Source: Escherichia coli
Lineage (GTDB): Bacteria > Pseudomonadota > Gammaproteobacteria > Enterobacterales > Enterobacteriaceae
Reading direction: 5' to 3' (one strand)
Length of the DNA stretch: 64,000 nucleotides
Assembly (NCBI RefSeq): GCF_003991155.1
Contig: NZ_CP031295.1
Shown here: positions 24,689 to 30,861 of the stretch, in pieces
How the letters are laid out: each line of letters begins with the position of its first letter
Position numbering within the stretch: position 1 is the first letter of the stretch
Made by a program: the position numbers and the translations under genes
Notes under the pieces: generated by a model
Told to the model about the DNA's origin: nothing
Databases searched by the model: none
What the model saw: the letters and a program-made list of their open reading frames with translations, nothing else

Positions 24689-24979
24689 ATGAGCGTCAAA
24701 ATCACAGGTTTAGACAAAATGCAGAAACAGCTAAAAGAGGTTGAGAGAGCAACAGAGGCATTAAACGGAAGTTATGATGTCCACTTCGATGCTAACGATC
24801 CTGTCAGCATTGAGAACGCGATTCAGGAAGCCTATTCCATGGTGTACGAACGCGCTTCTGGTTATGCCACTAATCCGATGGTCAGCCCATTAATCGAACA
24901 CATGAAAGAAAATCTGCGCCAACAGATTCTGGACAGAGCAGAACAACAAAGACAGGAGAGCGGGCAGGATGGCAATTGA
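24689..24979 (+). CDS. hypothetical small protein (96 aa), first gene of TIR-like cassette
   Basis: ORF with RBS-like GGAGG upstream; 11-nt overlap with next gene. Confidence 0.45.
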   Translation: MSVKITGLDKMQKQLKEVERATEALNGSYDVHFDANDPVSIENAIQEAYSMVYERASGYATNPMVSPLIEHMKENLRQQILDRAEQQRQESGQDGN

Positions 24980-25868
24980 TATCTTTCAGTCACTTAAAAA
25001 TTGCGTATTCGACCTTCAGCGCGCTGACGTTCAGAACTATCAGCAACCTCTTAAGCAATTGGCCCGGCTCTTGAACTCAGAGAATCTGCAGTCAGTTAAT
25101 GCACATCTGACCCGCAATGTTGAACTTGATACCTTTCTGGCCAGGAGTGAAGATACTGAATCCAGCATGGCTGGTTCCGCTGTTCTACAGTGGCCTGATG
25201 AGCCCGCTGATATTTTGGGCCTGAAGTTGCTGCTGATCGAGAAAATGGCAGACGATAACAATTTTTCCTTTAATTTCTGTCATACATTTTTCTATGATCG
25301 AAACATTATTGAATCCATTCGAAAATTCACGTCGTCATTAGTTGCCCCGTTCGTGCGCGATTACCAGTTGTATGTGGAAAACCAACACGATCCTGAGCCT
25401 GCAGTGTTTCGGCCGGTTTCCCGAAAAATTTTTATTGTTCATGGCCATGATAATGATGCCCTTCAGTCTGTTGCCCGTTTTATATCCCGGATAGGTCTTG
25501 AGGAAATCATTCTTTCAGAACGTCCTGACGGCTCCAGGACGATTATCGAGAAATTTGAAGCAGAGTCAGGGGATGTCAGTTTTGCCATCGTGCTGATGAC
25601 GCCCGACGATAGCGGCAGTGCTCTGGCATCTGAAAGCACACGTCTCCGCGCACGCCAGAATGTCCTGTATGAGCTCGGATATTTCGCCGGGAAGCTTGGA
25701 CGCGGGAAAGTACTTGTACTCAGGAAGGGAGATATCGAAATCCCTTCAGATCTTGCCGGGGTTCTCTATACCGAGCTTGATGAGCATGGTGGATGGAAAC
25801 GCAAACTGCTGAGTGAGCTTGCGTATGCCGGTGTTCCTTTTGACAAGGATAAAGCATTAAGCGCCTGA
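24969..25868 (+). CDS. TIR-like-domain protein (PF10137-type C-terminus) with unknown N-terminal domain
   Basis: C-terminal motifs KIFIVHGHD, AIVLMTPDD, RARQNVLYELGYFAGKLGRGKV, EIPSDLAGV typical of predicted nucleotide-binding TIR-like proteins. Confidence 0.55.
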   Translation: MAIDIFQSLKNCVFDLQRADVQNYQQPLKQLARLLNSENLQSVNAHLTRNVELDTFLARSEDTESSMAGSAVLQWPDEPADILGLKLLLIEKMADDNNFSFNFCHTFFYDRNIIESIRKFTSSLVAPFVRDYQLYVENQHDPEPAVFRPVSRKIFIVHGHDNDALQSVARFISRIGLEEIILSERPDGSRTIIEKFEAESGDVSFAIVLMTPDDSGSALASESTRLRARQNVLYELGYFAGKLGRGKVLVLRKGDIEIPSDLAGVLYTELDEHGGWKRKLLSELAYAGVPFDKDKALSA

Positions 25869-25917: not shown

Positions 25918-28143
25918 TCAGTCGTCATTTTCCAGCGCTGTTTTGAGCGCTTCCTGCTCCGGAGTCAGCTCGTTGCCGGACAGCATAACCTTCAACTTCT
26001 CTTCGACTGCTGGCCAGTCATCAAAGAACGGACTGACCTGGTCACGCGCAATCCGGCGATATGCCCCTCGGTGGGAGCTGAAGACACTGGTCTGTAATCG
26101 TATCAACAGGTTAACAAGGCCTTCATCAGTGGTAGTAACTTCTCTGACCCATTGCTTCACGGTTTCACCTGAACTCATGTCTCTCCAGGCGTAGAGATAC
26201 CCGAGAAGAGACTTGCGCAGGAGAAGCTGTTGCTGAAGTTCTGGTTGATTCATACGTTCCGCAAACCTGTCACGCAACCGTTCCGTAATATCGCGACTGA
26301 AAAGAGCGTCTGAAGGCGAAGGTACTGCATTCTGAGCAAGTCCATGTTCCCAGATAAGATCCCGCATAAAATCGGCTATCCAGAACGGCGAAGCACCCGT
26401 AACGATCAGTTTTTCCATAAGCGTGATCGTTCTGGTCTCATCAATATCCTGCATATGCTTCAGCAGATGCCGTACAACCTCATTAATGGCCATTTCACGC
26501 AGGGAAAACCATGGGTTACGGATACTGAAGCGAGTGCTCACCTCATCGGTGTGATCGAAGAAAAAATGAACCAGTCCTGCGCACTCTTCGAAATTACGTT
26601 CTCTTATCAGGCCTGGAGTCAGTCTGCTCAGTATATGTTCAAACCAGGTTCCGGACAGACTGCCCACACTGTTGATTTTTGAGAGCAGCAATTCAGAAAG
26701 CTGCTGCTGTTTTTCCGATACGCCAGCCTGTTCAAAAAGCTGTCTGAAGAATTCAGGTGGCAGAACATTCTGTGGTGAGGAGAAGGCAAAATAATATCGC
26801 CAGTGCGTCAGGCTGCTGAGTCGTTTACCGGTCGTCTGGATATGACGAAAATCCTCACTGACGGGCTCAAAAAGATTCAGATATTCATCATTATGTCCAC
26901 TGATACCTGGGATCCAGTCTGCAAGTGTCAGAAACGAGTCTGCATTTGATGCCCTGAACGTCTTCATACATCTGATAAGCCCCTCCCGGAAGTCTGCTTT
27001 CTCTCCGTCAGAAAGCATACCCTGACCGGTTTCAATCACGGACCGTTCTGTCAGGTAATGCTCTGTCCAGTCATACAGAGCCGGGTTTGTCACCCGTATA
27101 AGCTGAAGCAGGCACAAATCAGGGAAATAAACAAAATCCCGCATCCCCGGATAAAGAAAAATCAGGGAATTAATGGCCTGATGGATTTCCCGTGGCGTCG
27201 AAAGTGCGGCACCATAGGTATCAGTCACCGCGATGAGATCCCTTACCATTCCAGAGTCTGGCGGTTGATTATTAATTTGCTGATATAGAGCCTCAGCCCG
27301 CTGGCGAAATTCATTACGTAAATCAAAGGCTTCAGGTCGGGGTAATTTAAAACTAAGCTGAATGATTTTCTGGAGATAACGGCTGCCATCTTCGATATTC
27401 AGCGCATGTTCAACGGCATGAGTGATAATCTGCCTGTCATAACAGAGAATATGGGTAAAGCGGGGCAGATCGGCTACTGCACGCACAAGCCTGAACACTT
27501 CCGCCACCTGGGATGGCTCCAGTCGGTCCAGATCATCCATGACAACAATGAACTTCAGATCCAGACTCACCAGTTGTCCTGCAATTTCAGCCCGAAGCTT
27601 TGTCGTGGTTTTCTGATCAACAGCCAGACGGCTGTCTGAAAATACCTTTATTCCGCCTGCTATCCAGTTAATAATGCTGGAAAACTGTCCGATATATTGA
27701 ACCAGTGGAAGGACGCGCGATGAAGTATCCTGAGCATACTCAATCACTTTTTGAGCTTCCGGTGACAACAGATATTTACGCCAGAGCTTTTTGAAGCCCT
27801 TCGGGGGATAGCGTATTTCCATTTCCTGCTGGATAACCGTGGCAACCGGAAGAAAGAGCGCTTCAACCGGACTGCCGCCACTCAGCCAGGGAGAAATATG
27901 CAGCACATGCGTGTGAGCATCTTTTTTCAGGGCAAGGTTTCTCAGGATCAGATTAAGGAGGCTTGTTTTACCCGATCCCCATGCACCTTCTATTCCGACA
28001 ACATTTGAAGCCTCCAGAGGAAGAGTAAGGATGGAACGGGATATATTTTCTGCGATATTACCGAAACCGTATCGATCCTCAGGTACATCTTCAACTGCCG
28101 CATCAAGCCCTTTCTGGTTCCACAGCTGCCTCAGTATCTTCAT
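25918..28143 (-). CDS. KAP family P-loop NTPase
   Basis: 741 aa; Walker A GAWGSGKTS, Walker B FIVVMDDLDRL; large size typical of KAP NTPases. Confidence 0.6.
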   Translation of the reverse strand: MKILRQLWNQKGLDAAVEDVPEDRYGFGNIAENISRSILTLPLEASNVVGIEGAWGSGKTSLLNLILRNLALKKDAHTHVLHISPWLSGGSPVEALFLPVATVIQQEMEIRYPPKGFKKLWRKYLLSPEAQKVIEYAQDTSSRVLPLVQYIGQFSSIINWIAGGIKVFSDSRLAVDQKTTTKLRAEIAGQLVSLDLKFIVVMDDLDRLEPSQVAEVFRLVRAVADLPRFTHILCYDRQIITHAVEHALNIEDGSRYLQKIIQLSFKLPRPEAFDLRNEFRQRAEALYQQINNQPPDSGMVRDLIAVTDTYGAALSTPREIHQAINSLIFLYPGMRDFVYFPDLCLLQLIRVTNPALYDWTEHYLTERSVIETGQGMLSDGEKADFREGLIRCMKTFRASNADSFLTLADWIPGISGHNDEYLNLFEPVSEDFRHIQTTGKRLSSLTHWRYYFAFSSPQNVLPPEFFRQLFEQAGVSEKQQQLSELLLSKINSVGSLSGTWFEHILSRLTPGLIRERNFEECAGLVHFFFDHTDEVSTRFSIRNPWFSLREMAINEVVRHLLKHMQDIDETRTITLMEKLIVTGASPFWIADFMRDLIWEHGLAQNAVPSPSDALFSRDITERLRDRFAERMNQPELQQQLLLRKSLLGYLYAWRDMSSGETVKQWVREVTTTDEGLVNLLIRLQTSVFSSHRGAYRRIARDQVSPFFDDWPAVEEKLKVMLSGNELTPEQEALKTALENDD

Positions 28144-28144
28144 A

Positions 28145-29236
28145 TTACAGATCTCCGTACAGGCAGCGCAGCCCGGTCAGGGCCTCCGCCAGCGGGCCTT
28201 CTTGACACCGCGTGGCGAGCTCCCGGACCAGCGTCTCAAAGGCCTCCGCCGGCATAAAAATCCGCAGGCCGTCTATCCCGAAGAAGCCCTCCGGCGTGAC
28301 GTTTCCGGGCGGGGAGAACATCACTCGCTCCCCCTGGTGACCGTGCGTCAGGGCTTCCGGATGCCGGGCATACAGCGTGAACAGGCCCAGCAGTTCGGAT
28401 AACGCTTCCCAGCCGTACGGCACCACGAAGTCCTGGCCGGTGATCAGCAGGTGCAGACGGGGTGTGGTGTACCAGGCCCCCGGGCGTTCTCCGGGGTGCT
28501 GGCCGTCAACGCGGATCTCCAGGCGCAGCGTGCCGGCCTCAATGGTTTCCGTGACGGCAGAAATAACCGGGCGCAGCTCCTGTGCCAGCGTTCTTGCCTG
28601 TTCTGTGTTCCAGTCCAGGCCGCGCAGCATCAACGGGAAAACAGCTTTCAGCCGCGGCAGGGTGAAGATTTCTGCCAGCACCGCGTCCGGCACCTCCGCC
28701 AGGCCAAAACAGTCGCTCTCGAGCGGACGCAGGAGGTGTTCGGCATACATCTGATCCACCACGGGGCGCAGCGCTGCCCGGAAGGCTTCAAACTCTTCCG
28801 TCCAGTTTTTCCCGGCCAGGCGGAAAATCCCCTTCAGGTAGTGACCGTCCACAGGGCGATCGTGCTCCACCTGCCAGGCCAGCAGGTTGCCAGTGATGTC
28901 CAGCAGCGTGTCCAGGGCCGGGAGTGTGGCCAGCCTATTATGCCCGCGCAGGAAGGCCTCCCTGACGTGAACCAGGACAAAGCGCAGTTCGTCGCGGGAG
29001 AGCGCTGACGTGCCGAAGGTCTGGCCCAGAATGATATGCCGGTACAGCTGCCGGACCGTGGCCTCCGGATCGGCAATGAGCTGAAAATACCCGTCACCGG
29101 GCGCGACCGTTTTCAGGCCGTCATCGAGGAAGCGTTCGGCTAGGGCGTTGACCGAAGTATTTTCCCGACCGGCACGCGTTTTCAGCGCCTCGATAAGTTT
29201 TTTGTGAAAACGCAGGTTAAGCTGGCTTAGCATCAT
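28145..29236 (-). CDS. ribbon-helix-helix (Arc/MetJ-like) domain protein with large uncharacterised C-terminal domain
   Basis: N-terminus MMLSQLNLRFHKKLIEALKTRAGRENTSVNALAERFL resembles Arc-type RHH; GC-rich; stop overlaps KAP start (ATGA). Confidence 0.45.
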   Translation of the reverse strand: MMLSQLNLRFHKKLIEALKTRAGRENTSVNALAERFLDDGLKTVAPGDGYFQLIADPEATVRQLYRHIILGQTFGTSALSRDELRFVLVHVREAFLRGHNRLATLPALDTLLDITGNLLAWQVEHDRPVDGHYLKGIFRLAGKNWTEEFEAFRAALRPVVDQMYAEHLLRPLESDCFGLAEVPDAVLAEIFTLPRLKAVFPLMLRGLDWNTEQARTLAQELRPVISAVTETIEAGTLRLEIRVDGQHPGERPGAWYTTPRLHLLITGQDFVVPYGWEALSELLGLFTLYARHPEALTHGHQGERVMFSPPGNVTPEGFFGIDGLRIFMPAEAFETLVRELATRCQEGPLAEALTGLRCLYGDL

Positions 29237-29777
29237 CGATCCTTTAATGTTTGTTTTGTTCTTAATGCTAACCTAGCATTTTATTATTAGCTATTAATCA
29301 GTTTTTTAGTTTTTGAAAATTGTGATGCTTCTAAAATTGAGGATTTTAATGCTACAACAATGCCTGCCTCTTCTTATTTCTCCGGAGATCCGAAAACCCC
29401 AGGTTACGGATCTTCCTCTCCCCCCACACAACGCCACCTCCTGTCAGCACAACATGTGGTATCTCATTCAGCTGCTCATGACACTATATGTTGTGTCATC
29501 TCCCTGACCTGTGATGCGCCGCGCAGGGGCGGAAAACAGCGATATGATTATTTTCTCAGCGTGGTACACTTCCGGAAAGTTGTGATATTCCGGAAAGTCG
29601 GATCTGACGGAAACGGCTCTCCGGTAATTTAACTGCGTTTCTATATGGCTACTTATTATTTCAGTATGTGAAATTCATTTTTTGTGAAAGTCACTGTTCT
29701 CAACAGAGTGGCACTCATCTGGCGATGATTGAGGTGTGGTAAAATTGCACGGCTAACTATTCAACTGAGGAAAGGAC

Positions 29778-30128
29778 ATGTTTACTGCATTCAATGAGAG
29801 AAATGATTTCAGTTATGCTTTTGAAAAAATCCGTAATGCGATTTCCGCGCCAGGAGAAAATAATCTTTATGCTGCAACAGAATTAGGTCTTGGCATTCTG
29901 CTCCGTAAATACGAGCAGTTTCGCCAGGAACTGGATGCGGCCGGTGAGCTGGGAAACTGGGAATATGATCTCGATACCTACAATCACTGTATTGCGGTGC
30001 TGCAACGTTACTTCACCGGCAATCCATCCGGGCTCACAGAACGTGATGCCCGGATTTACAGCCATTACCTGCAGACTGAGCACAAAGGCTTTGTGAAGCT
30101 GGCTGAAGAACTGGCTGCCGACCGCTGA
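29778..30128 (+). CDS. hypothetical protein (116 aa)
   Basis: ORF with GAGGAAAGG RBS-like sequence upstream. Confidence 0.4.
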   Translation: MFTAFNERNDFSYAFEKIRNAISAPGENNLYAATELGLGILLRKYEQFRQELDAAGELGNWEYDLDTYNHCIAVLQRYFTGNPSGLTERDARIYSHYLQTEHKGFVKLAEELAADR

Positions 30129-30171: not shown

Positions 30172-30861
30172 ATGGCTGACTGGTTTATTGCGACCGAAGG
30201 CGTGAAGGTGGTGAAGGACAGCGCCAGTCTGGGGCCGCAGATAATTACAGCTGTATCGACCATCGCATCTGCTGTCGGAGCGGTGTTCCTTACTCACCAC
30301 TTCACACTCAGACGTGAGGAGAGAACTGCAGCAGCGAAGCTGGCCAGCGAGCGTCTTTACATTAGTACAGAGCTGGTTTTTTTACTTGAGCGATTTGCGC
30401 AGCGTTGCGCTCCAGCAGCAACAGCAACTGTGGAGCACGATCAGGATGGCAGAGGAGAAGCTGAGTTCTTATTACCGGAAATCGATTATTCCCCGGTATC
30501 TGGTAACTGGCGCTCCCTTCCTTCTGGCCTGATGTATAGGCTCAGCGAACTCTCTGTTCTCAGCTACGAAGCTGTCGTGTGTGTAGATAATGTGTTTGTT
30601 GAAGATACTCCTTATGGTGGAGCGGGTGAATATAGTTTGCATAAAAACGCAGCTATGTTGGGAGTAAAAGCACTGCGGTTATCACGAGAACTGAGAATGT
30701 TATGTGGCCTCCCTCTGCACGGCCTTTCCGATACACTATCGCCAACGAGGTTGGTATTGTTGAAAGCCAGAGGTAAAACACTCCAAAAGGAGTACGAAAT
30801 GGTAAAGAAGTCTAAAAAGACCGAGCAAGAGATTGAGGATTTCATAAAGGGGACATCATGA
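30172..30861 (+). CDS. hypothetical protein with N-terminal hydrophobic segment (229 aa)
   Basis: Hydrophobic stretch IITAVSTIASAVGAVFL; 4-nt overlap with following recombinase gene. Confidence 0.4.
   Translation: MADWFIATEGVKVVKDSASLGPQIITAVSTIASAVGAVFLTHHFTLRREERTAAAKLASERLYISTELVFLLERFAQRCAPAATATVEHDQDGRGEAEFLLPEIDYSPVSGNWRSLPSGLMYRLSELSVLSYEAVVCVDNVFVEDTPYGGAGEYSLHKNAAMLGVKALRLSRELRMLCGLPLHGLSDTLSPTRLVLLKARGKTLQKEYEMVKKSKKTEQEIEDFIKGTS

Follow-up and report, generated by a model that had tools for sequence, protein, structure and literature searches.

The palindrome upstream of pifC in the window, i.e. the whole stretch of 64,000 nucleotides of DNA that was analysed, is with a probability of roughly 85% the operator (pifO) through which PifC represses its own promoter. 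This reading draws on the conservation of the palindrome's core across pifC loci and on its co-variation with a single residue of PifC. As such, the feature is almost certainly already known: the identity of the locus, the naming in RefSeq and what the papers of 1983-85 are said to contain all identify it as the operator of the pif system described about 40 years ago. The features discussed below are collected in Table 1.

The 'RHH-KAP pair' of the preliminary description of this DNA is the classical pifC-pifA phage-exclusion operon of the F plasmid. In a tblastn search, residues 1-363 of PifC are 100% identical to plasmid F (NC_002483). RefSeq names the product 'transcriptional repressor PifC' (WP_000952217.1), with the same accession in F and in the records that are identical to the window. 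Such records, 100% identical over positions 28900-29800 (901-bp query), stem from many IncF plasmids, and their gene is annotated as pifC; an operator annotation was found in none of the annotated records that were retrieved. Among the NCBIfam and PADLOC models none matches PifC. The 741-aa ORF that follows, on the other hand, matches the PADLOC PifA model with an E-value of 2.9e-290 and Pfam KAP_NTPase with 3.2e-43. It lies on the same strand as pifC and, since it starts 1 nt past the pifC stop codon, it is read as the second gene of an operon. The pifC ORF itself reaches a first ATG at 29236 (28145-29236, 363 aa). However, the second ATG at 29233, which gives a protein of 362 aa, is the start used in RefSeq, is better spaced from the Shine-Dalgarno sequence and is the one of the two that homologues retain. 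An alignment with F that starts within pifC and runs upstream past the palindrome shows no mismatch, and the palindrome, which occupies 45791-45807 of NC_002483, is identical in the two. The one exception is an indel of 9 bp located some 55 bp upstream of the palindrome. This indel is the sole difference from F within approximately 250 bp upstream of pifC: the unit CTAAAATTA is present as a single copy in the window (29333-29341) and as two tandem copies in F (locus L002, around 9860-9880). Because of the indel, the distance from the palindrome to the distal half-site (see below) differs by 9 bp from that in F.

Table 1. Positions of pif operon features, with putative regulatory elements, in the window.
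Feature	Position	Strand	Remarks
Palindrome, proposed PifC operator (pifO)	29264..29280	-	17 bp, perfect; reads AATGCTAGGTTAGCATT in pifC orientation
Operator core TGCTA-N3-TAGCA	29266..29278	-	Conserved across Asn6 pifC loci
Putative extended -10, TGc-TAGGTT, inside palindrome	29270..29278	-	TG at 29278-29277, hexamer at 29275-29270
Putative -35-like hexamer TTAATA	29292..29297	-	16 nt upstream of putative -10
Distal half-site TTAATGCTA	29346..29354	+	TAGCA in pifC orientation, at -121
pifC	28145..29233	-	Repressor; N-terminal Arc/Mnt-like RHH domain and C-terminal domain of ~310 aa
pifC Shine-Dalgarno AAGGA	29240..29244	-	From sequence reading; AAAGGA conserved in homologues
pifA	25918..28143	-	KAP-family P-loop NTPase, phage T7 exclusion effector; 741 aa
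GACATCATGTC			Site of Thr-type operator class, from related loci

Work by Miller and Malamy that appeared in J Bacteriol in 1983 and 1984 reportedly established that pifC negatively autoregulates the operon via pifO, a cis site located upstream of the gene, and that PifC is titrated by pifO in trans. In the accessible full-text literature we found no paper giving a sequence for pifO. The title of Miller, Lanka and Malamy 1985, as it stands in a reference list (PMC5696584), calls pifC the 'pif operon regulatory gene'. Moreover, PifC inhibits the transfer of IncP and IncW plasmids and acts against the coupling proteins of rival plasmids (PMC5696584). PifA is a well-known abortive-infection protein directed against T7, and one group reported that its attempt at a functional ectopic pifA construct was unsuccessful (PMC8594841).

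On the plus strand the palindrome reads AATGCTAACCTAGCATT. Its arms, AATGCTA and TAGCATT, are fully complementary over 7 bp each and are separated by the 3-bp spacer ACC. Since pifC is encoded on the minus strand, the palindrome is upstream of the gene in the gene's own orientation, 27 nt away from the ATG at 29236 and 30 nt away from that at 29233. Reading of the sequence thus agrees with the preliminary description, which had listed a perfect palindrome with 7-bp arms at this position, and had placed it about 30 bp upstream of the RHH gene; depending on the ATG that is chosen, it is 27-30 nt. Neither the exact palindrome pattern nor its 13-bp core recurs elsewhere in the 64-kb window. Perfect palindromes with 7-bp arms and spacers of 0-6 nt are, however, a frequent type of element: 90 are found in the window, compared to approximately 31 in composition-preserving shuffles. 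Their density is around one per 700 bp, and the likelihood that any given start codon has one no more than ~60 bp away is approximately 8%. By itself, a palindrome with 7-bp arms is weak evidence and not beyond chance. What lifts this one above chance is that its core is conserved across pifC loci.

The first ~50 residues of PifC align with two repressors of phage P22 in single-pair BLASTP comparisons, Arc (E=1e-4) and Mnt (E=2e-5). The alignment pairs Q4, N6 and R8 of PifC, numbered from the start at 29233, with Q9, N11 and R13 of Arc, which are the base-contacting residues of the beta-strand in the crystal structure of the Arc-operator complex. An AF2 model of PifC (26 homologues, pLDDT 86) has helices at residues 11-24 and 28-39. 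Residues 1-8 are of low confidence in this monomer model, as expected for a strand that is formed only in the dimer. A Pfam match to DUF6364 over residues 2-44 remains below threshold (20.3 bits compared to a cut-off of 27.3 bits). A sequence search of the PDB with the PifC N-terminus yielded no RHH match; it returned only designed repeat proteins, which are uninformative. Most of PifC is made up of the C-terminal ~310 residues (approximately 45-362; window positions 28145-29100), for which AF2 predicts a confident fold with a pLDDT mostly above 90. When the AF2 model of full-length PifC was compared to the PDB by Foldseek, nothing with an E-value below 0.01 was recovered. Presumably, the C-terminal domain carries the activity against the coupling proteins of rival plasmids, a function in oligomerisation, or both.

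To relate the palindrome to PifC we compared 30 pifC loci, namely 10 plasmid and 19 genome loci encoding PifC homologues of 95% down to 35% identity, and the window. TGCTA-N3-TAGCA is found at -42 to -46 from the start codon in all 14 loci, including the window, whose PifC has an Asn at residue 6, albeit with a single mismatch in the core (AGCTA) in one of them, L014. Conversely, it is found in none of the 16 loci whose PifC has a Thr at this position. These have GACAT-N-ATGTC instead, at -84 to -134 (16/16). The association between operator class and residue 6 has a Fisher p-value of 7e-9, without correction for phylogeny. Within the first 50 amino acids of PifC, no position other than residue 6, the counterpart of base-contacting Asn11 in P22 Arc, separates the two classes; apart from it, some Thr-type N-termini are identical to Asn-type ones for the first 40 residues or more. 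When a neighbour-joining tree is computed from PifC residue 61 onwards, it requires at least five changes between Asn and Thr. In part, the association could be due to the joint transfer of a single recombination block and not to functional coupling, because operator and codon 6 are separated by just ~60 bp in the Asn-type loci.

It is this comparison of Asn6 and Thr6 loci which points to the palindrome as the PifC operator. Palindromes of such a size are bound by many protein families, and the site might instead be the operator of another protein, for example of a host factor or of a different plasmid regulator. However, the class of the palindrome follows one residue in the putative DNA-reading strand of PifC over at least five independent switches, and it does so in loci that are spread over many genera and replicon types, which makes a different cognate protein very unlikely. 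The claims that had been made about the protein side of this locus from the sequence alone fare well, too. That the gene controlled from upstream encodes an RHH protein is borne out by the Arc/Mnt alignment together with the AF2 helices. Its proposed autoregulation via the palindrome gains support from the identity of the pifC-pifA locus, the RefSeq repressor name and the co-variation of operator and residue 6, all of which are consistent with it. The suggestion that the RHH-KAP pair forms a self-regulated module is likewise supported, the pair being the pif operon of F; that this system already has a name and has been characterised had escaped the preliminary description.

At the level of single bases, tGCTA.G.TAGCA and the T that follows it are invariant in 13 distinct Asn-type upstream sequences. 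When the Asn-type loci are anchored on the core, 0 of the 25 columns upstream of it reach 70% conservation. The conserved part of each arm is confined to the inner 5-6 bp, and the seventh arm position varies freely. In L005 the palindrome is kept even though unrelated DNA replaces all the sequence upstream of it. The abundance of palindromes in the window and the ~8% likelihood of having one near a given start would fit a functionless chance event in AT-rich intergenic DNA. But an invariant core, at a fixed position between scrambled flanks and next to genes whose proteins are down to 35% identical, as well as a palindrome sequence that switches together with residue 6 of PifC, render such an event extremely improbable.

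The same pattern bears on the question of whether the palindrome acts as a hairpin, either in a plus-strand read-through terminator (the palindrome and then TTTATTATT) or as a structure in the 5'-UTR of the pif mRNA. A 7-bp stem with a 3-nt loop can be formed in both orientations, and a T-rich tract comes next on the plus strand. Yet the hairpin is weak, with a calculated free energy between -5.0 and -5.5 kcal/mol and z-scores between -1.1 and -1.2 relative to shuffles, and the stem holds just two G-C pairs. Moreover, the arms are invariant, and where the outer stem positions vary they do so without complementarity (e.g., GTGCTA...TAGCAT). Invariant arms without compensatory change are the pattern expected of a site that is read by a protein, rather than of a hairpin. 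Annotation as a rho-independent terminator was rejected, since the stem is weak, the terminator scan makes no call and no plus-strand gene ends at the palindrome. We consequently give a hairpin function next to no weight.

A further alternative takes the palindrome to be chiefly the PifC-binding element of the neighbouring F origin ori-1 (oriV), which would support initiation besides repression. Tanimoto and Iino reportedly found in 1984-85 that the product of pifC ('protein C') is needed for replication from ori-1. The 540-bp intergenic region beside the palindrome is conserved in F and in many IncF plasmids, and 9 of the 14 Asn-type loci have an extra TAGCA half-site about 90 bp further upstream, at approximately -130. 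The full palindrome, in contrast, keeps its fixed distance of -42 to -46 from the pifC start in all Asn-type loci. It also persists in L005, L012 and L028, in which the ori-1-like flank is either replaced or unalignable. The fixed distance and the persistence without an origin-like flank thus tie the palindrome to the gene and not to the origin, and we consider a primary function in ori-1 unlikely. It is possible that a role in ori-1 adds to repression rather than excluding it. In the window, the distal half-site TTAATGCTA, 84 bp away from the palindrome's left arm, brings the number of half-site copies to three; it may serve PifC as a secondary site or belong to the ori-1-like region. An additional half-site candidate, the ATGCTA at the start of pifC (29228-29233), was discarded: it results from the succession of the codons ATG-CTA, and homologues with CTC or CTG in place of CTA lack it.

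A scan for consensus promoters gave no sigma-70 call, either in 28900-29900 or in the three homologous regions that were scanned. In a relaxed, self-made sigma-70 scan, the candidate embedded in the palindrome is the best or near-best one in most Asn-type loci, and T(T/A)AATA recurs at the same spacing as the putative -35-like hexamer in several of them. The Thr-type palindrome likewise holds TGa-CAT(C/G)AT in gene orientation in the relaxed scan. The palindrome therewith probably overlaps an extended -10 promoter element. We propose the following mechanism. The Arc/Mnt-like RHH domain lies within the first ~40 residues of PifC, and PifC dimers would insert a two-stranded beta-sheet into the major groove at TGCTA and at TAGCA, where Gln4, Asn6 and Arg8 would read the bases. 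Most likely one dimer would occupy each arm, on a single face of the helix, as is the case for the tetramers of Arc and Mnt. PifC bound over the extended -10 element would exclude RNA polymerase, and this occlusion would lower transcription of pifC and of the translationally adjacent pifA. Such negative autoregulation would hold a potentially toxic abortive-infection NTPase at a low and steady level.

The loci of the second operator class are L008, L009, L011, L017-L021, L023-L027 and L029-L031. Their palindrome has the form (AT)GACAT-S-ATGTC(AT), often followed by TTGAC, and in most Thr6 loci an element TGACAGGA overlaps the ribosome-binding site at -14 to -16. Finally, the genes that follow pifC are not always the same. 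The effectors downstream of some PifC homologues differ from a PifA-like KAP NTPase (L004, 4103-5476; L006; L007, 4094-4963; L008; L014-L016; L012, 4142-4750). One is a 289-292-aa protein with a weak HEPN match that is hit by the PADLOC model PDC-S64 at 3e-17, another a 457-465-aa protein without a family match and a third a 202-aa protein. This arrangement suggests that pifC may be a regulator cassette with exchangeable effectors. Overall, we lean slightly towards a scheme in which PifC proteins would fall into two operator-specificity classes that are set by one residue of the RHH beta-strand, Asn6 for TGCTA-N3-TAGCA and Thr6 for GACAT-N-ATGTC. The residue and the operator would have been swapped jointly at least five times, both palindromes would contain a TGn extended -10 element, and the regulator cassette would occasionally precede effectors other than PifA. 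The swap between Asn and Thr may keep co-resident pif-like modules from repressing each other. Incomplete versions of pifC are found as well. Many Klebsiella plasmids (hits H37-H55) contain an unannotated remnant that covers residues 62-363 only and lacks the RHH domain; presumably, the operator is missing as well. In L009 and L022 the pifC gene is interrupted, with 61 and 231 aa, respectively.

Further upstream of pifC, identity to F decays from around 29440 and is gone by around 29560. In the place of ccdA-ccdB of F, the window has two ORFs without a Pfam match (29778-30128 and 30172-30861) and then a tyrosine recombinase (30858-31649). The same arrangement of two ORFs and a tyrosine recombinase is seen in plasmid pMRY15-131_1. 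The intergenic region contains two other repeats, at 29448-29495 and 29570-29598: an imperfect 16-bp inverted repeat, CACAACATGTGGTATC / GACACTATATGTTGTG, and two direct copies of TTCCGGAAAGT which are 18 bp apart; these repeats may be origin-related. The region 31827-33816 includes colicin M (32230-33045, minus strand; Pfam 3.8e-155), a colicin immunity protein (33238-33816) and a YebF-like protein, which is probably the colicin M immunity protein. Based on the colicin M and immunity genes, the window derives from a ColBM-type IncF plasmid. On the other side of the operon, two plus-strand genes are convergent to pifA: a small 96-aa ORF (24689-24979) and a gene for a 299-aa protein with a CAP12/Pycsar-effector TIR domain (24969-25868; Pfam 3.7e-37), the latter of which is also present in plasmid F. 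The TIR protein and the 96-aa ORF may form a second defence gene pair beside pif.

For the most part, the palindrome confirms the annotation of the classical pif operon. The base-level definition of its core, TGCTA-N3-TAGCA, is useful for annotation and for the design of PifA expression constructs. In a modest way, the Asn/Thr specificity switch may add to what is known of the pif system; we found no description of it in the more recent, accessible literature. Being natural, the switch provides a simple test case for the specificity of RHH proteins.

The closest known system is the pif operon of F itself. It is the same locus, with PifC, the palindrome and pifA downstream, in which the first gene represses via a cis site, and it differs by one copy of CTAAAATTA. 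Arc and Mnt of P22 share with PifC the motif Q-x-N-x-R in an N-terminal beta-strand. They also share a short inverted-repeat operator with arms about one helical turn apart, a position of this operator at or over the promoter, which is the putative arrangement at pifC, and self-regulation. However, PifC has 362 aa including a C-terminal domain of ~310 aa, compared to 53 aa for Arc and 82 aa for Mnt, and the half-sites of the Arc operator are based on TAGA, as opposed to TGCTA-N3-TAGCA at pifC.

Type II RHH antitoxins, such as CcdA, ParD and FitA, which regulate their own operons via palindromes, resemble PifC in that the RHH gene comes first in a two-gene operon, is preceded by a palindrome and is followed by a gene for a potentially harmful product. 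Unlike the small toxins of these systems, PifA is a 741-aa KAP NTPase that acts in abortive infection, and PifC is additionally known to act against coupling proteins of rival plasmids (PMC5696584). We found no evidence that PifC neutralises PifA by direct binding. Finally, dedicated repressors of anti-phage systems such as those of the BrxR/CapW type, which are WYL proteins, are encoded directly upstream of a defence effector and bind an inverted repeat at their own promoter. We know of no inducing signal for PifC. Regulators of the pifC type are similar to the BrxR/CapW type also in preceding effectors of differing kinds (a KAP NTPase, a weakly HEPN-like protein of 289 aa and proteins of 457 and 202 aa), but the two types differ in their DNA-binding fold, which is RHH in PifC and wHTH-WYL in BrxR/CapW.
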